Origin: a phage
Sequence record: PQ400056.1
Reading direction: 5' to 3' (one strand)
DNA length: 64,000 bases
The notes beneath the pieces were generated by a model. The model made no database searches and had not been told where the DNA came from. It was given only the letters and a program-made list of their open reading frames with translations. Shown here one piece after another: positions 6,789 to 14,691 of this stretch. Made by a program: the position numbers and the translations under genes. Every line of letters begins with the position of its first letter. Position 1 is the first letter of the stretch.

Positions 6789-9719
6789 ATGGCAGATTTA
6801 AGCAGAATCCAATTTAAACGCACTAGCACTAAAGGTCGTAAACCGGATGCTAGTACGATGAATCCGGGGGAATTGGCAATCAACCTTGCGGATCAATATC
6901 TTCTTACTAAAAATGATTCCGGTGATATTATCAATTTAAGTTGTCCTCCGGTGTATGACCGCGATGTTACAATGGCGGGTAAGGTTAAAGGTAATAATTA
7001 TATCTTAAGTAAAACCGCTAACTATCTGGAAGATCAGACAGCGAGAGATCTTAACTACTTTGGTGCTTTCCGTACCAATGGTCTTGATGGTCTTCTCGAA
7101 CTCACGCTAAACGTTCCTCACTCTTCCGGTGTCCAATATGGTCGAGGATTTACTTTCCAGTATGGACATACTGGATCACGAGTAGAAACCTATGGCTATA
7201 ATAGAGAAGGTCAAAAAGCATTTAGCTATAAAATGTATCACGAAGGTGATAAACCAACTCCAGGAGAATTGAACGTCTATAGCAAACAAGAAGTTGACCG
7301 TATGTTTGTTAAGAACGTTAAACTTGCTACATCTCCTCGTGATATCGTTGAAGGCTATTTTAAATTAGCAACTGCAATGATTCCACAAAACGGTCTTAGC
7401 GTATTTTTCCGTATTCATGGCGGTAACGGATATAACGTTACTGCATACGATCAAGTTGATATTGTAGAAATTGTTATTCGCAGTGGAAATGGTCGCCCTA
7501 AAGGTGTTAACGTTATTGCATATCGCCGAAATACAAACAAATCATTTGATGTTTTGGCTGTTAATACTTCTGGTGATAACTATGATATCTATGTGAAATA
7601 TCAGCGTTACACTGATAACGTTATTGTTGAATTTGGTAAAAGTGTTGGTGTTAATCTGGTAGTTCATGACGTTCCAGATTTTGTTGCTGAACGTCCTGCT
7701 GGTGATAATGTTATTGGCGGTCGTGCTGTAACTCTTTTCAACACCGAAAATAAACGTGGTGTGTTAAGTTTTGATGATAACACACAAAACAGCTATGACA
7801 TTGTTCATCTAAGTAATGATAAAGGTACTGGACGGAAATATATTCGTAAATTCCGTAGCAATTATAACGAAATGGTTTGGCATGAAACCGTTCAGGGTGC
7901 TGTATATCGTCTTGCTACTGGTGCTACAGATTCTACAGAAGTTATTAGAATTGATTCTAATAGTGCAATACCGGGTAATTATAAAGGATATGTAATTACT
8001 GGTAAAATGGAATTGCACGGTGGTGGTAATGCGATGACTTTACATCGACAGACTGGTCAAGCTGCATATATGGCGTGGTGGGGTCGTCGTGATGGTAAAA
8101 ACCAACGTAGTGGTTATATCGGTCATGCGGATGGTACTAGTGATGGTTTTGTGTGGCGTAATGATGTTGGTGCTAACTCATTTGATTTGGAAGGTAGTGG
8201 ACAAGTAAATTTGACTACAGGAAAAACAAAAATTGTATATACCAATGGTCAATATTATTCCGCTAACGCTGATGCATTCCGTATGATTTACGGTAAGTAT
8301 GGTGCATTCTGGCGAAATGATGGTGGTAAAGTTTATCTGTTGTCTACTGCCGAAAATGATAGATTTGGTGGTTGGAATACATATCGACCTTTTATCTACG
8401 ATCTTACTTCCGGTAACGTTCAATTAGGTGGTGATGGAAACGAAGATGTATTAACTCTAGAACGCGCAAGCAAGGCCGCTCGATTCTCTGGCAACGCTTA
8501 CATCAAAGGTCAACATTTAACATTTGATGCTGGTGCTGGACAATCCCGCGATTACTTCCGGTTTAACCATTGGGGCGATAGTAATAACGCTCGCGATAAC
8601 ATCCTACAGATTGAAGACAGTCAGGGTGCACACTTTACCACTGAACGCGCTATGGGTACTGGCAATATCACAGCACGTTTTAAAGGCTTTGTGCGTGTAG
8701 AATCCGGTGAGATTGCCTTTGATGCTAATCGTGGATCTGCGTCTCAATTTACCTTACATACATGGGGTAACGAGCAACGCAAACAGGTTTTTGAATGTAA
8801 GGATGCTACTAGTTATCATTGGTATACCGAACGTACAAACGGTGGAACTGGTCCTATCCTGTTCTCTGTTGCTGGTACATTAAAAACTGCGAGCAATATA
8901 CAGGTTGGCGGTGCTGATATTGAGTTTCGTCGCAGTGGTAATAAGCATTTATGGTTTAGAGATCCGAACGGTTTAGAATTAGGTTTGATGTACTGCGATG
9001 ATGCTGGTGTTATCCGCTTCCGTGGTCAGAAACAAGGTCAAACTTGGAAACTTGCTGATAAAATGATTCATCTTGAGGCGGGGACTGTCGGCGGGTCTGA
9101 TAAAGGTTTGATTCGTGGTAATGTTGCTGGTGGTAGCTGGGCTAGCTGGCGTGATCGTTCTGCCGGAATCCTCGTAGACTGTCCGAACTCAACCGATTCC
9201 GCTCATAACATCTGGAAAGCGACTCATTGGGGAAAATATCATATTGCGGCAATGGGTGTGCATGTTCCTAGTGGTACTATTACCAATGCTTTAGCTCGCC
9301 TAAACGTTCACGACGCCAACTTTGACTTTAACGCTGCGGGTGATTTTAGCGCAGGTCGTAACGGTAGCTTTAACGATGTTTATATTCGTTCTGATACTCG
9401 CCTTAAAATCAATAAGGAAGAGTATAAGGAGAATGCCACCGATAAAGTTAATCGCTTGACGGTATACACCTATGACAAGGTTAAATCTTTAACCGACCGT
9501 ACTGTCATTGCTCATGAAGTTGGTATTATTGCTCAGGATCTTGAAAAAGAATTGCCGGAAGCCGTAACAACTTCTAAGATCGGCGATCCAGATAATCCAG
9601 AAGAGATCTTAACAATTTCTAACTCCGCTGTCAACGCTCTTTTAATTAAGGCGTTTCAGGAAATGAGCGAAGAATTGAAAGCCGTTAAAGCTGAACTAGC
9701 GGAACTTAAAAAGAATTAA
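6789..9719 (+). CDS. 37: long tail fibre distal subunit gp37 with C-terminal intramolecular chaperone domain
   Basis: 976 aa; N-terminus MADLSRIQFKRTSTKGRKPDAS matches T4 gp37 MATLKQIQFKRSKIAG; last about 110 aa (9390-9716) carry the SDxRLK ... VGIIAQ ... coiled-coil signature of self-cleaving C-terminal chaperone domains. Confidence 0.85.
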   Translation: MADLSRIQFKRTSTKGRKPDASTMNPGELAINLADQYLLTKNDSGDIINLSCPPVYDRDVTMAGKVKGNNYILSKTANYLEDQTARDLNYFGAFRTNGLDGLLELTLNVPHSSGVQYGRGFTFQYGHTGSRVETYGYNREGQKAFSYKMYHEGDKPTPGELNVYSKQEVDRMFVKNVKLATSPRDIVEGYFKLATAMIPQNGLSVFFRIHGGNGYNVTAYDQVDIVEIVIRSGNGRPKGVNVIAYRRNTNKSFDVLAVNTSGDNYDIYVKYQRYTDNVIVEFGKSVGVNLVVHDVPDFVAERPAGDNVIGGRAVTLFNTENKRGVLSFDDNTQNSYDIVHLSNDKGTGRKYIRKFRSNYNEMVWHETVQGAVYRLATGATDSTEVIRIDSNSAIPGNYKGYVITGKMELHGGGNAMTLHRQTGQAAYMAWWGRRDGKNQRSGYIGHADGTSDGFVWRNDVGANSFDLEGSGQVNLTTGKTKIVYTNGQYYSANADAFRMIYGKYGAFWRNDGGKVYLLSTAENDRFGGWNTYRPFIYDLTSGNVQLGGDGNEDVLTLERASKAARFSGNAYIKGQHLTFDAGAGQSRDYFRFNHWGDSNNARDNILQIEDSQGAHFTTERAMGTGNITARFKGFVRVESGEIAFDANRGSASQFTLHTWGNEQRKQVFECKDATSYHWYTERTNGGTGPILFSVAGTLKTASNIQVGGADIEFRRSGNKHLWFRDPNGLELGLMYCDDAGVIRFRGQKQGQTWKLADKMIHLEAGTVGGSDKGLIRGNVAGGSWASWRDRSAGILVDCPNSTDSAHNIWKATHWGKYHIAAMGVHVPSGTITNALARLNVHDANFDFNAAGDFSAGRNGSFNDVYIRSDTRLKINKEEYKENATDKVNRLTVYTYDKVKSLTDRTVIAHEVGIIAQDLEKELPEAVTTSKIGDPDNPEEILTISNSAVNALLIKAFQEMSEELKAVKAELAELKKN

Positions 9720-9759
9720 GGAAACTCCCAGGGAAGGGAACTACTAAGGAGAAACGGCT

Positions 9760-9999
9760 ATGGTCTATAATATCGTCATTGGTGCTTTGTCTAATTTCGG
9801 AATGAAATTATTGTCAAAGTTAATTAGTGAAAAGATGCTCACTAAAATTTTCTTCTATTGCGCTCGTCGTCTTGCGGCCTATACCAATACGCCAATTGAT
9901 GATCGTTTCGTGGAAGAACTTTATAAGGAGTTTAATAAAGATCAGTCAGAAGATAGTAACGAGCAAGATAAACCTAGTGATAGTCAAGTACCTAAATAA
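9760..9999 (+). CDS. hypothetical protein (79 aa) in the position of gene 38
   Basis: ORF between gene 37 and holin t; no similarity to the T4 gp38 adhesin/chaperone recognised. Confidence 0.35.
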   Translation: MVYNIVIGALSNFGMKLLSKLISEKMLTKIFFYCARRLAAYTNTPIDDRFVEELYKEFNKDQSEDSNEQDKPSDSQVPK

Positions 10000-10032
10000 G
10001 AGTACACTGTCATAGTTATCTTAGGGCATTAT

Positions 10033-10695: not shown

Positions 10696-10727
10696 GGGGA
10701 AGCCTTTCGGCCTCCCCTTCTTTTTTA
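10696..10727 (+). terminator. terminator after holin t, between convergent transcription units
   Basis: GGGGAAGCC-TTTC-GGCCTCCCC (one mismatch) followed by TTCTTTTTTATT. Confidence 0.55.
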
Positions 10728-10973
10728 TTGGCGCATAGAAGCCCCTGAATCACATTTTGACGCTGTATGATGAAAACAGGTAGCGTACCAGTCATCGGCT
10801 TGTTTGTCTTCGTCAGAAAACGCGTAATTGCGTTGTATGCCGTTTTCTACTTTGACCAGTGCAATAGCTGTTTCTGGAAGATCAATCAATCGGACAAAAT
10901 CGCCATCTTCCCATTCTACACGAGCAATATCATAACCCATCTCAAAATAAACAATCGCTTGTTCTAATTTCAT
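10725..10973 (-). CDS. hypothetical protein (82 aa)
   Basis: ORF in the coding-dense minus-strand array; start approximate. Confidence 0.45.
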   Translation of the reverse strand: MKLEQAIVYFEMGYDIARVEWEDGDFVRLIDLPETAIALVKVENGIQRNYAFSDEDKQADDWYATCFHHTASKCDSGASMRQ

Positions 10974-11302
10974 TCTGGAAACTTCCCGTAAATGTTCTCT
11001 GCTAACATACGCGCATCGCTAATGATATCTTTCATGCTATGACCGTAGTGTTCAGCCATTGAGTTGACACAATCAACAAAGAAATTATAACGGCGACGGT
11101 TTAAGATTTCTTCTCTGCTATAGTTTTCATATTTGACGGTCGAGTGTGCTTTCTCGATTGCCTTGATTGCTATATTGACTTCATTGATAATGGTTTTAGC
11201 ATTGTATGCGCCACGACGGATCAGGATATTTGTCAATTCTCTTGCAATATCTTGCAATTCTTCATATTCATGTTCAAACATAATCAACCTCTCAAAATAC
11301 AA
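10970..11302 (-). CDS. hypothetical protein (110 aa)
   Basis: ORF with stop-start overlap to neighbours in the minus-strand array. Confidence 0.5.
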   Translation of the reverse strand: MYFERLIMFEHEYEELQDIARELTNILIRRGAYNAKTIINEVNIAIKAIEKAHSTVKYENYSREEILNRRRYNFFVDCVNSMAEHYGHSMKDIISDARMLAENIYGKFPE

Positions 11303-11305
11303 TCC

Positions 11306-11638
11306 TTACAGATGAAAACCTGTTACGATCACCGCATCGATCTTACCGCTAGGAATAAACGGTTCGCCCTCTTTTATTTCAACTTTGAATTGATGCCATT
11401 TCGCTAATACTTCTTCCGGTACACCCAGCGATTCGGCGTCTGCTTTAGTTTCATCCATAATCCAACTAGGCTGCATGAGAGCATAGTTTACATAGTCCAT
11501 TTCTGGGGTCATGTCATCAATGTTAATATATTTGCAGTTGACGCGTTTCAGAATTTCAAATTCTTTATTGTCAACCTGTACCATGTATAATTCAGTAGTT
11601 TCTGGAATCAGTTCCCACACAATCAGTACATTTTTCAT
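11306..11638 (-). CDS. hypothetical protein (110 aa)
   Basis: tightly packed minus-strand ORF. Confidence 0.5.
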   Translation of the reverse strand: MKNVLIVWELIPETTELYMVQVDNKEFEILKRVNCKYINIDDMTPEMDYVNYALMQPSWIMDETKADAESLGVPEEVLAKWHQFKVEIKEGEPFIPSGKIDAVIVTGFHL

Positions 11639-11646
11639 AGTTCACC

Positions 11647-12015
11647 TCACTTAACAAAGATTTTCTTTAATGCTTTCAAGATCGTTGCTTCCGGCGCTTC
11701 TTCCGGTGGAGGAAGCAATTCTACCACTTCCTCTTCCAACTCGATATAGTCTACCAGATATTCTACATAGAATGCAAGTGCTTCCATGAAATTAGATGCT
11801 ACATCCGATTCGCCACACGCGCCCACATGCATTGTATAAACATCACTGCGATCAAGTTTGTGGATGCTTCCCAGATAGTTCCGGTTATACCAGACTTCCC
11901 ACACTTTCAGCTTTCCGGTTTTGGTTGCTGTTTTATAATCGGTTTCGTAATGATGCAATTGACGTTGCAAATCATTGATAATAACACATTTTTCGTAATT
12001 GTTTTGAATTTCCAT
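11647..12015 (-). CDS. hypothetical protein (122 aa)
   Basis: tightly packed minus-strand ORF. Confidence 0.5.
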   Translation of the reverse strand: MEIQNNYEKCVIINDLQRQLHHYETDYKTATKTGKLKVWEVWYNRNYLGSIHKLDRSDVYTMHVGACGESDVASNFMEALAFYVEYLVDYIELEEEVVELLPPPEEAPEATILKALKKIFVK

Positions 12016-12025
12016 GATGTAATCC

Positions 12026-12217
12026 TCACTTATCGTTAAGAAGTTCTAAAACTTTCTGTCGTACTTTGTCAATATTAGTTGATTCAAAAACTGTACGGTA
12101 TCCCCAGCTTTGACCGTATGAGCGGTTGCAATCTCCATATCCCCATTGTTCAACCTGATAGTATTCAAGGAATGGATGCTGCCGAACTATGATACCATCG
12201 CGATTAAAAATTACCAT
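12026..12217 (-). CDS. hypothetical protein (63 aa)
   Basis: ATG at 12217 with GAGG SD. Confidence 0.45.
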   Translation of the reverse strand: MVIFNRDGIIVRQHPFLEYYQVEQWGYGDCNRSYGQSWGYRTVFESTNIDKVRQKVLELLNDK

Positions 12218-12240
12218 AATATAATCCTCACGTCAACAAC

Positions 12241-12528
12241 TTATTTTCGGTTGTGGTCACGATATGTTTTAAAATATCCCTCGTACCACGGTAAAACATC
12301 TGGATTTTTACCACTATACAGACCTTTAACCATCATGTCAATAAGGCCATCTGGTGTTTGATAGTTTCCAGCTTTTATAAGCTCTCTGATTAAAATCTCT
12401 CTGTATATGTCTTTCGGATCTTCGTAATCAACTTGTATTGTGGTTGTGGTCTCATTCAATTTGGTTTCTGGAGTATCTCGCATTGCATCCCACCAATCTT
12501 TTGTGACCTTCATGTTATTGAATTGCAT
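12241..12528 (-). CDS. hypothetical protein (95 aa)
   Basis: minus-strand ORF. Confidence 0.45.
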   Translation of the reverse strand: MQFNNMKVTKDWWDAMRDTPETKLNETTTTIQVDYEDPKDIYREILIRELIKAGNYQTPDGLIDMMVKGLYSGKNPDVLPWYEGYFKTYRDHNRK

Positions 12529-12539
12529 AATTTAACCTC

Positions 12540-13298
12540 TTACTTGCAAACGTATTGATCTACATCAATTGCGCCACCGAATGTGGGATGACGTTTTTCA
12601 AATCGAATAGTTCCGTCGTTTGGTTCGAAAACGGAGTATTCATATAGATCTTTCTTGCCAACATTCTTATAAAACCCGCCTTTCGTCATAACGGTTTCTT
12701 GTACGTTTGCTTTGTGTACGTTGTATTCATCAATGTATACAAAATCAACCATCTTCCCATTTTTAATGGTTACTTTAAGATCCCCTGGCTGGTTTCCATA
12801 TTTTGCATACAGTGGAGCCTCTTTAATTTTTGTGGAAATTCCATCTTTCATACTCCACTCATAACGAACGGTGCATTGATAGGTAAAAGTTTCGACCTTC
12901 GGTTCTTCTACCACTTTTGCTTCCTGTTTCGGTTGTTCTTCTTCAACCTTCGCAGAAGTCTCTGAATCGCTTTCTGACGCGGTTTCTTCTTTAGGTAATA
13001 CATTCATCAAGTTTTGGATTTGAGCGTTATATACAGCCTCCAGTGGCTGAATCTGCCCGATATTGATCATTGTATCACGAACAGTTTTATTCCAGTTTCG
13101 TTGCTCTTGTTTCAGAGACGGATCAATCTTAACAGCCTTAACATACACCTCATGAAGTTTAGAGTCCAGTGCGGAGATAGACTCATTAGCACAAATAAAC
13201 TTCTCTGATTTGGTAGTAGCTTTAGCGCAATCAAAGGACGCAGCGTTAGCACCGAAAGCAGTAGCAGAAAGAACGATAGCAGCGATAATGTTTTTCAT
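12540..13298 (-). CDS. secreted protein with DUF1311/LprI-like N-terminal domain
   Basis: 252 aa; signal peptide MKNIIAAIVLSATAFGANA; ASFDCAKATTKSEKFICANESISALDSKLHEVY resembles the two-cysteine DUF1311 motif; E/K-rich linker then a C-terminal domain; ATG 13298 with GAGGA SD. Confidence 0.6.
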   Translation of the reverse strand: MKNIIAAIVLSATAFGANAASFDCAKATTKSEKFICANESISALDSKLHEVYVKAVKIDPSLKQEQRNWNKTVRDTMINIGQIQPLEAVYNAQIQNLMNVLPKEETASESDSETSAKVEEEQPKQEAKVVEEPKVETFTYQCTVRYEWSMKDGISTKIKEAPLYAKYGNQPGDLKVTIKNGKMVDFVYIDEYNVHKANVQETVMTKGGFYKNVGKKDLYEYSVFEPNDGTIRFEKRHPTFGGAIDVDQYVCK

Positions 13299-13332
13299 AA
13301 TATATTCCTCAGTGTTTTGTCTTGATGGGAGT

Positions 13333-13362
13333 ATCTTACTACTCCCTTAATCCGGTGTCAAC
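13333..13362 (-). promoter_or_regulatory. early promoter cassette copy: GTTGAC, 18 nt, TAAGAT, with conserved leader
   Basis: minus-strand GTTGAC (13362-13357) and TAAGAT (13338-13333); overlaps stem-loop GGGAGTA / TACTCCC (13327-13346); leader ACTCCCATCAAG ... GAGGA before ATG 13298. Confidence 0.5.
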
Positions 13363-13372
13363 TACTTTTAAA

Positions 13373-13693
13373 TTATTTTCGCCATTCACCGGAAACAATA
13401 AAGTTTGTAAAGTGATCGTGGTCCATGATAACGTCATTAAGTACCATATGTGGATACACTTTAGTGATAATTTTACTAAGTACCATATGCGGATATGCTT
13501 TAGTGTAATCACGTTTACGATCAGTCATCCAGCCAACGAAAGTTGGTGCAAAGTACGGTACACCGTCAGACGATGCCATATTAAACCCTTTATCAACCAT
13601 AAATGCAGCCGCCCTAAGATTTTTAATTGAAGTAGTGCGACTAATTTCAAAAACTTTATCGGTAAAATTCATTTTAAGCCCCCGCTCGTGCAT
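13373..13693 (-). CDS. hypothetical protein (106 aa)
   Basis: minus-strand ORF. Confidence 0.45.
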   Translation of the reverse strand: MHERGLKMNFTDKVFEISRTTSIKNLRAAAFMVDKGFNMASSDGVPYFAPTFVGWMTDRKRDYTKAYPHMVLSKIITKVYPHMVLNDVIMDHDHFTNFIVSGEWRK

Positions 13694-13883
13694 TAATACG
13701 CATTTTCTGTATAGCCATGATCTGGTTTACTGCTTCTTCTTTACGTTCTTGCGTGATAATGTGACCAGATTCCGCAAACTCTCCAGCAACTTCTTCTACG
13801 ATCTCGCGAACTTGAGAACGTCCAAAGATGCGGTTTCCTTCGTAGCTCATAAACTCTGTTACTACTTGCTCGATAGATTTCAT
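13674..13883 (-). CDS. hypothetical protein (69 aa)
   Basis: ATG 13883 preceded by conserved leader AAAGGAGAATCAC. Confidence 0.5.
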   Translation of the reverse strand: MKSIEQVVTEFMSYEGNRIFGRSQVREIVEEVAGEFAESGHIITQERKEEAVNQIMAIQKMRINARAGA

Positions 13884-13912
13884 GTGATTCTCCTTTCGTT
13901 TGGTATGGGAGT

Positions 13913-13942
13913 ATGTTACTACTCCCTTATCTTTACGTCAAC
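13913..13942 (-). promoter_or_regulatory. early promoter cassette copy: GTTGAC, 18 nt, TAACAT
   Basis: minus-strand GTTGAC (13942-13937), TAACAT (13918-13913); stem-loop GGGAGTA / TACTCCC 13907-13926; leader ACTCCCATACCAAACGAAAGGAGAATCAC then ATG 13883. Confidence 0.5.
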
Positions 13943-13948
13943 TAGTTT

Positions 13949-14191
13949 TTAGAAATTTTTCGCTTCTTCTTCGGTCATCATAACCGCGCATTCGTGCATA
14001 ACTTTGAAAACCGGATCAATCATGTCGAATGCTTCGCGGGACAGTTTACGAGAAGCGATTTTGATTGCTTCTACGTCTTCTACTACAGGAACAAAAACAG
14101 TTTTCAGTTCGTCGAGGACGGCAGCTTCTTTTTCATTCAGGAAGATCCCAGCGTCGTACAGTGCAACTTCGATAACATTAACTTTAACCAT
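13949..14191 (-). CDS. hypothetical protein (80 aa)
   Basis: track ORF 13949-14254 starts at TTG inside the promoter; first ATG with GGAGGA SD is at 14191. Confidence 0.5.
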   Translation of the reverse strand: MVKVNVIEVALYDAGIFLNEKEAAVLDELKTVFVPVVEDVEAIKIASRKLSREAFDMIDPVFKVMHECAVMMTEEEAKNF

Positions 14192-14225
14192 TTTTATTTC
14201 CTCCAGTTCGTTTCGGTATGGGAGT

Positions 14226-14255
14226 ATAATACTACCGATGACCTTTGGCGTCAAC
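14226..14255 (-). promoter_or_regulatory. early promoter cassette copy: GTTGAC, 18 nt, TATTAT
   Basis: minus-strand GTTGAC (14255-14250), TATTAT (14231-14226); leader ACTCCCATACCGAAACGAACTGGAGGAAATAAAA then ATG 14191. Confidence 0.5.
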
Positions 14256-14455
14256 TAGTTTTTTGTTATTTTCGTGAAATTTTTCGTCGCCTCATGTGCT
14301 TTTCGCTGGGCTTCTTGTTGTGCTTGCTGGCGTGCTGCCTCTTGCGATGTCATAACAGACGCATTTGCAGCAGTTACAGCCGCGACCATCGCTGCGGTAT
14401 TAGCATTTACCGTACATGCACTAGCCAGCAAAGCAATCGCAATCATTTTCTTCAT
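14255..14455 (-). CDS. small secreted protein (66 aa)
   Basis: N-terminal signal peptide MKKMIAIALLASACTVNA; A/Q-rich mature part. Confidence 0.5.
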   Translation of the reverse strand: MKKMIAIALLASACTVNANTAAMVAAVTAANASVMTSQEAARQQAQQEAQRKAHEATKNFTKITKN

Positions 14456-14691
14456 AGTTTCCCCTTTAGGTTATCTTCGACCTTCACCCATTCCGCGTAT
14501 TCTTGCGCGGCTACTTTCGGATTTAAGCCGTCTTCGTACATTGCTTCAAGTAATTCTTCGTCGGTGGGCTTATACCCTAGATAAGCCTCCACCTGATTTT
14601 TCCAAATTTTATACCAGTTCATATTATCACCAATCAAGAGCGCGTGTCTCTGCGTCTTCCCATGCTTGATCCATAACAGCCTTGAAAACAT
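14452..14691 (-). CDS. hypothetical protein (79 aa)
   Basis: minus-strand ORF with ATGA-type overlap to the downstream gene. Confidence 0.45.
   Translation of the reverse strand: MFSRLLWIKHGKTQRHALLIGDNMNWYKIWKNQVEAYLGYKPTDEELLEAMYEDGLNPKVAAQEYAEWVKVEDNLKGKL

Follow-up and report, generated by a model that had tools for sequence, protein, structure and literature searches.

A predicted periplasmic DUF1311/LprI-type protein of Krischvirus with interchangeable C-terminal domains and close copies in Escherichia coli prophages

Background

Proteins of the DUF1311/LprI family (Pfam PF07007) are known from Mycobacterium tuberculosis (LprI, which gave PF07007 its name), Escherichia coli (YecT), Salmonella (ScwA) and E. 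coli O157 (Etsi4), and the present study deals with a 252-aa member encoded by a phage, namely by sequence record PQ400056.1, a 64,000 nt stretch of a Krischvirus (RB49-like T4-type myovirus of E. coli) that is hereafter called the window. In LprI the DUF1311 domain is followed by a small beta-barrel, the MliC domain, which is regarded as enough for lysozyme resistance; ScwA is a free periplasmic disulfide-bonded protein. DUF1311 proteins with a signal peptide have also been predicted to be orphan immunity proteins beside lysozyme-like type VI secretion system (T6SS) effectors in Pantoea, as well as beside WHIX effectors, and a 2026 study found experimentally that Etsi4 rescues the periplasmic toxicity of the T6SS effector Etse4. 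No paper on any phage DUF1311 protein was found in the literature. The phage protein has the sequence motif of LprI, YecT, ScwA and Etsi4 in common with them, as well as the predicted helical bundle, secretion and disulfide bonding, and its domain order is that of LprI. However, LprI is a lipoprotein and the phage protein is not, and the C-terminal barrel of the latter is not a Pfam MliC domain but a polymorphic cassette, carried by a lytic phage and by prophages without an adjacent effector.

The other described systems to be compared come from T4-type phages. T4 Spackle (Sp), a highly conserved single 75-aa helical bundle, is the periplasmic inhibitor of the gp5 tail lysozyme; like the 252-aa protein, as predicted here, it is early, signal-peptide-bearing, disulfide-bonded, periplasmic and of T4-type origin, but the two have no homology and gp5 is not tracked by the variable domain described below. 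To our knowledge, only a few of the periplasmic proteins for superinfection exclusion or immunity in T4-type phages are understood (Spackle, Imm), and we know of none that is polymorphic. At the DNA level, the closest precedent is the modular shuffling mediated by the promoter-early stem-loop (PeSL) in RB49 and phi1 (Arbiol et al. 2010), where strong early-promoter and terminator activity was reported for other PeSLs. The locus studied here has in common with it the hyperplastic region, a canonical PeSL directly upstream of the gene and a mosaic neighbourhood (RB49, Phi1, JSE, UPWr_E1), whereas the unit of exchange is a domain-coding segment within the gene, reaching from the linker to the stop codon, and not a segment from PeSL to PeSL.

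Results and discussion

Predicted anatomy of the protein

We consider it highly probable, for both parts of the statement jointly, that the mature protein (~233 aa) consists of three parts, namely a helical DUF1311/LprI-type domain that has one Cys pair, a disordered acidic linker and a small beta-barrel, and that, judging from sequence comparison, old functional allelic lineages of the C-terminal domain were recombined onto a homogenised and constrained N-terminal module (N-module). As far as our searches show, the domain-level cassette polymorphism, the ORFan barrel and its exchange between lytic phages and prophages are undescribed. A sequence-only reading of the window had proposed a secreted protein in which a DUF1311 domain is followed by an acidic linker and a second domain, with a promoter of its own; this structure held up throughout, including the linker and second domain as delimited in Table 1, but the hypervariable, swapped-cassette nature of the second domain and its sharing with prophages had been missed.

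Over positions 11500-14500, the window shares 99% identity with Escherichia phage kaaroe, and 93-99% with a further 58 records of the genus. The locus is a hyperplastic region of small minus-strand early genes with the holin gene t and tail-fibre genes on one side and topoisomerase gene 52 on the other, the 252-aa gene lying 1.9 kb from t. Our reading of the open reading frames (ORFs) returned the proposed gene at 12540-13298 (-) with its ATG start; it is the same as RB49ORF260c (UniProt Q7Y3G7), and its counterpart kaaroe_184 is labelled 'hypothetical'. Since a weak DUF1311 match (E = 0.2) was already given for RB49ORF260c by Nolan et al. 2006 and Q7Y3G7 bears the UniProt name 'Lysozyme inhibitor LprI-like N-terminal domain-containing protein', the assignment to DUF1311 was public before this study and is hence not new.

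The N-terminus (MKNIIAAIVLSATAFGANA/ASFDC, the stroke marking the cleavage site) carries K2, a hydrophobic core with a mean Kyte-Doolittle value of 2.28 (residues 4-16) and A-x-A at -3/-1, features that agree with the claimed signal peptide and indicate a Sec-type one with predicted cleavage after Ala19; the AxA/ASFDC junction is kept in the ~40%-identity homologues of Klebsiella phage Marfa and Aeromonas phage AS-sw. Since the sequence lacks a lipobox, we rejected the idea of a lipoprotein. Membership in the DUF1311 family was confirmed with Pfam, PF07007 being matched at residues 24-76 with 25.8 bits (cutoff 22, E 1.4e-5) by an alignment that covers profile positions 1-71 of 106, i.e., the first two thirds of the model, and likewise by all aligned family members (15 of 15). 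A profile search with the N-module returned 90 DUF1311/YecT/LprI-family proteins, mostly single-domain and 100-180 aa long. The two-cysteine motif noticed in the earlier reading is real, as S-F-D-C and a second Cys (here C24 and C36) are invariant in an alignment of 26 sequences; residues 37-141 contain no Cys, and the second Cys pair that is frequent in the family (consensus R..C.....C) is missing.

In the AlphaFold2 (AF2) model, four helices (residues 30-98), forming a helical bundle like that of PDB 3gi7, are followed by a disordered acidic linker (104-132) and an all-beta C-terminal domain (135-251, pLDDT ~88). As the first and last strands of this domain each bear an invariant Cys, the modelled barrel is probably closed by a Cys142-Cys251 disulfide.

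An interchangeable C-terminal domain

Homologues are few, with only 20 clusters in a collection of 5.8 billion proteins, and in their alignment residues 1 to ~130 are almost invariant whereas the last 115-130 residues split into very different types, six of which are distinguished here. Type A is carried by the window, RB49 and ~45 Krischvirus records, type B1 by a metagenomic Krischvirus contig and E. coli prophages, type B2 by UPWr_E1, type C1 by Phi1, GEC-3S, MIZ2, MIZ6 and PHB13, type C2 by a 174-kb metagenomic Krischvirus contig and E. coli prophages, and type D by JSE and E. coli prophages. Pairwise identity among types A to C is 26-40%, and all that the types have in common is two Cys and one Gly, C142 and C251 being invariant in every cluster (20/20). 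The AF2 model of type D is also an eight-strand beta domain with two flanking Cys.

The DNA of the N-module is ~95% identical across the C-types. In Phi1, JSE and UPWr_E1, which have kept the PeSL upstream of the gene, an identity of 94-98% begins at the PeSL (window 13374), persists up to the linker's end (codons 134-136) and is then lost. The 5' junction falls at window 12928-12891 over the BLAST comparisons and at 12897-12891 against these three phages, and on the 3' side identity is back at window 12541 (JSE) or 12532 (UPWr_E1, E. coli H2), with 90-97% in JSE and UPWr_E1.

Selection was quantified by Nei-Gojobori estimates with our own script. For the N-module, dS was 0.05-0.25, dN 0-0.03 and dN/dS at most 0.27 (mostly ≤0.1) in every pair computed, whichever C-type it carried, which places this module under strong purifying selection, and the linker is nearly neutral (Table 1). 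Between C-types the dS of the C-domain is saturated, and within types its dN/dS is 0.14-0.54, which argues for functional alleles. Fast in-situ positive selection on the C-domain was rejected, since saturated dS between types together with dN/dS below 1 within them is better fitted by old alleles and recombination. The gene was found in 59 records and gp5 in 60, one of these being a gp5-only entry; being present wherever gp5 is, it behaves as a fixed accessory gene of Krischvirus that occurs in essentially all its genomes.

The C-domain was compared with known families by several routes. When the type A domain (residues 131-252) was searched exhaustively with phmmer against 1.84 billion representative proteins, a single member of the family came up, together with two spurious proteins of repetitive sequence, and no relative outside the family. 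Pfam (to E 10) and NCBIfam gave no relevant match for the C-domain, PADLOC matched weakly and in the N-terminal half of the protein only, and sequence and profile searches of the C-domain against PDB found nothing significant. A word-indexed search with the type D C-domain profile also returned nothing, known family members likewise being missed by it. A fold search in BFVD retrieved nothing beyond the entry of RB49 itself and phage lipoproteins or barrels that bear no annotation.

In the homologues of Marfa (L021 2501-3259, between primase gene g61 and dCTPase gene g56 and ~2 kb from spackle) and AS-sw (L022 1974-2693), signal peptide and DUF1311 N-module are retained and followed by a charged linker and a C-domain with two Cys, so that the modular plan is widespread in T4-like phages.

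Copies in E. coli prophages

Of 5426 complete E. coli genomes, 26 matched the first 371-408 nt of the gene in megablast at 94-96% identity, always with one chromosomal copy per genome, named 'lysozyme inhibitor LprI family protein' by PGAP. At the four loci inspected, the gene stands last in an arm of low GC (38-42% vs ~50% on the chromosome side). The arm, which abuts hicB, is part of a prophage-like element that encodes terminase gpA and a Rha regulator; hicB is annotated as truncated at the insertion in three of the four (L004, which is E. coli H2, L008 and L009). In the low-GC arm of these three (positions 4000-9000 in L004), the space from the Rha regulator to the LprI-like gene is taken up by hypothetical genes of 60-333 aa, and these neighbours had no Pfam or PADLOC match. 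In IMG/VR the same element occurs on contigs 23-36 kb long, the gene again being terminal.

Three C-types, B1, C2 and D, are represented among the prophage copies, and each of them also occurs in phages. Over the whole gene, the copy of E. coli H2 and the B1 copy in Krischvirus context share 95.9% identity; the homology sets in 6 nt ahead of the ATG and extends ~66 nt beyond the stop. As it begins only 6 nt before the ATG, the PeSL was not co-transferred to E. coli, in which the case differs again from the shuffling of Arbiol et al. 2010. Directly 3' of the H2 copy (L004 9772-9850, corresponding to window 12532-12466) there is a 25-codon remnant (MKFNSMKITKDWWDAMKANHQNDIN, then a stop codon) that derives from the 95-aa phage ORF at window 12241-12528, the next one after the gene in the phage. 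Because this remnant of a downstream phage ORF follows the prophage copy, the sequences point to a transfer from Krischvirus to prophage. For types C2 and D, the N-parts of phage and prophage copies are 92-98% identical and the C-parts 52-85%.

Promoter cassette and coordinates of the features

Upstream of the gene, AT-rich DNA leads into the sigma-70 boxes TTGACA-17-TAAGAT, a stem-loop on the -10 box, GAGGA and the ATG, an arrangement that bears out the proposed promoter cassette and fits the published PeSL (Arbiol et al. 2010). Its RNA folds with -16.3 kcal/mol (z = -3.1), and two exact matches to the PeSL pattern were found against a chance expectation of 0.01. With a PeSL in this position, the gene is predicted to head an early transcription unit. 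The coordinates of the features of the gene and its cassette are given in Table 1.

Table 1. Features of the 252-aa gene and its upstream region, in window coordinates
Feature	Position	Strand	Details
PeSL early promoter/stem-loop	13327..13361	(-)	-35 TTGACA 13361-13356; -10 TAAGAT 13338-13333; spacer 17
PeSL stem	GGGAGTA 13346-13340 paired with TACTCCC 13333-13327	(-)	7 bp, over the -10 box
Shine-Dalgarno GAGGA	13306..13310	(-)	7 nt before ATG, read from sequence
Signal peptide, residues 1-19	13242..13298	(-)	SPase I cleavage predicted ANA/A; AF2 pLDDT <50 for residues 1-20
DUF1311/LprI-type helical N-domain, residues 20-100, Cys24 and Cys36	12999..13241	(-)	
Acidic disordered linker, residues 101-134	12897..12998	(-)	pLDDT <50; net charge -6; dN/dS 0.12-1.6
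Variable C-terminal domain, residues 135-252, allele type A, predicted all-beta barrel	12543..12896	(-)	invariant Cys142 in first strand, Cys251 in last
Stop codon; DNA homology to other alleles resumes about here	12540..12542	(-)	BLAST boundaries

A second PeSL lies 580 bp upstream at 13907-13941 (-), with a near-identical stem-loop (GGGAGTAgtaacaTACTCCC) and TTGACG as its -35 box, and recombination between the two, of the kind described by Arbiol et al. 2010, would be possible. Just upstream of the first PeSL, inside the ORF at 13373-13693 (-), a 39-nt tandem direct repeat (13426-13503, two copies, 82% identical) doubles a 13-residue peptide (..YPHMVL..); in kaaroe it corresponds to the repeat_region annotation of kaaroe_183.

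Possible role and alternatives

The role that we favour, tentatively and with rather more doubt than confidence, is that of a periplasmic binder or inhibitor which shields the infected or lysogenic cell from incoming proteins that act in the periplasm. The protein would be made soon after infection, or constitutively by a lysogen, and after export it would intercept a periplasm-acting protein arriving from outside, for which a superinfecting phage's cell-wall hydrolase or other ejected protein, an effector of a T6SS or a bacteriocin would be candidates. The variable barrel would set which target is recognised, and the constant DUF1311 module would supply a common function, be it a second binding head, dimerisation or anchoring. 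We arrived at an immunity or exclusion role because of the protein's compartment and early timing, its family context and its fold, and further because of the balanced polymorphism of its cassette and the capture at a prophage edge; the features of an exported protein of an oxidising compartment (signal peptide, two invariant Cys pairs) were counted in its favour, and so was the cassette polymorphism, which is typical of specificity and immunity determinants. A more elaborate version, namely a polymorphic two-headed immunity/exclusion protein of the periplasm whose interchangeable, disulfide-closed barrels each neutralise a different incoming periplasmic weapon of phages or bacteria and whose alleles are under frequency-dependent selection and traded between lytic T4-type phages and prophages, is possible, but we think it unlikely to hold in full.

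Several observations weigh against such a shielding role. No effector gene stands beside the 252-aa gene in phage or prophage (its phage neighbours are small ORFans), in which it differs from the effector-adjacent DUF1311 immunity genes of T6SS (Etsi4, Pantoea). Deletion of scwA leaves the lysozyme sensitivity of Salmonella unchanged, and 'lysozyme inhibitor' is a family label and not evidence of function. Neither of two phage proteins compared with the C-type covaries with it: the gp5 tail lysozyme has 95.7-100% identity at full coverage in all 60 Krischvirus records, and type A occurs with at least three different g37 tail-fibre tips, the tip type of the window being common (86-89% identity) to JSE (type D) and PHB13 (type C1). 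Profile-profile comparison found no homology of type D to types A-C beyond the first strand, the C-domains of Marfa and AS-sw are unrelated in sequence to the Krischvirus barrels (that of Marfa looking helix-rich by eye), and Marfa has both a spackle gene and a DUF1311-N-module protein.

The barrel was also compared with periplasmic inhibitors of lysozymes and peptidoglycan hydrolases. The MliC/PliC/ACP barrels are closed by a beta1-beta8 disulfide, an arrangement that the invariant C142 and C251 suggest for the modelled phage barrel as well, but these inhibitors (MliC, PliC, ACP, PhiA) have eight strands and nine are predicted for the phage barrel, which unrelated barrels match equally well or better. 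The resemblance is unspecific, with OmpW, NspA, FABP, NHBA and TbpB barrels scoring similarly, and the type D model retrieves NHBA, TbpB, fHbp and HpuA, not MliC. The MliC Pfam profile PF09864 was not matched by this protein (to E 10) or by 15 members of the family (to E 1), the SxSGAxY motif (loop 4) is in no allele, and YxxxTKG (strand 6) is absent, since the TKG of type A (205-207) lacks the Tyr and is not conserved in other types. As the resemblance is unspecific and neither the Pfam signature nor the inhibitor motifs are there, the sequences speak against membership of the barrel in MliC/PliC.

As regards Spackle, a variable domain acting as a Spackle-like inhibitor matched to Krischvirus gp5 was rejected, since gp5 is near-constant across the C-types. 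The constant N-module could still fill the spackle role, because at the syntenic site, g61-g41, no gene of RB49 is annotated as spackle, and tblastn with Marfa Sp, which matched 730 phage records, found nothing Sp-like in the window or in 6-30 kb of RB49 (88 kb altogether); this absence was also counted for the shielding role. At RB49 11061-12628 (L023 5062-6629), dc1, dc2 and two ORFans stand where T4-type phages have 61.2, sp and 61.4.

Among the other explanations, a modulator of host cell-wall enzymes in the manner of ScwA, which would bind or stabilise periplasmic lytic transglycosylases or endopeptidases and so tune envelope integrity or lysis timing, with the C-domain selecting the host enzyme, survives best, though we judge it improbable. 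ScwA raises the level of the lytic transglycosylase MltD and causes lysis when overproduced, the holin gene is close by in the same region, and a DUF1311 gene (YecT family) appeared in a Pseudomonas beta-lactam resistome screen. However, the conserved core peptidoglycan enzymes of E. coli leave six or more ancient C-domain alleles in one genus unexplained, ScwA has its DUF1311 domain at the C-terminus and thus a different architecture, and the position at the prophage edge better suits a protective accessory gene. The independence of the C-type from the g37 tip speaks against a further idea, the masking of a receptor or porin from the periplasmic side, in which the barrel would bind the periplasmic face of the phage's outer-membrane receptor, with alleles following receptor specificity, and would block superinfection and the loss of progeny on debris. 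T5 Llp, acting on FhuA, sets the precedent, and a periplasmic, early and polymorphic protein encoded near tail-fibre genes would suit it, but with the predicted cleavage ANA/A and no lipobox the protein is not a lipoprotein, and prophage copies occur without a T4-type fibre, so that this explanation has little probability. The unspecific barrel matches could also be taken to suggest a small-ligand periplasmic barrel (calycin/lipocalin-like; cf. Cap15, FABP, hemophilin) that sequesters a lipid, an envelope precursor or a signalling molecule; a single ligand does not predict deep allelic diversification or the non-homology of D to A-C, no ligand-binding family profile was matched, and we regard it as very improbable. 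An antiholin-type lysis-inhibition factor (RI analogue) acting on the periplasmic domain of holin T would agree with a periplasmic, early protein encoded near t, but is hardly credible for a protein without similarity to RI whose gene is also carried by an hicB element that is not T4-type (lambda-type terminase gpA, Rha regulator).

If the shielding role is correct, the locus would represent a modular specificity system in which allele swaps could map what each barrel blocks, it would give a first function to the phage DUF1311 proteins, widespread in T4-like phages of Escherichia, Klebsiella and Aeromonas, and it would mean that a lysogen can gain an exclusion factor from a virulent phage. Cocktails for phage therapy include Krischviruses (e.g., phi1), and an exclusion factor that lysogens can capture would affect the prediction of host ranges. 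Whatever the function, the locus offers a well-defined domain-level cassette polymorphism and a recent gene flow between virulent Krischvirus and E. coli prophages, with mapped junctions.

Neighbouring genes

At the end of the same early block, an 82-aa ORF at 10725-10973 (-) matches PF11195, Tad2-like (Thoeris anti-defence 2), with 27.9 bits (cutoff 25, E 3.4e-6), and the match is also found in the metagenomic Krischvirus contigs L024 and L026. This suggests that the hyperplastic region carries putative counter-defence genes, and the presence of the Tad2-like gene in the block was counted for the immunity or exclusion role. The 66-aa ORF at 14255-14455 (-) begins with a signal-peptide-like N-terminus (MKKMIAIALLASACTVNA...) with a possible weak lipobox (LASAC), and would, from these features, be another small exported protein of the region. 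The distal tail-fibre tip (8300-10000 (+), 3' part of g37 and Dc5) is highly mosaic among Krischviruses, with coverage from 17% to 100% and identities of 84-97%; kaaroe, 99% identical in the hyperplastic region, has only the last 38% of the tip segment in common with the window.

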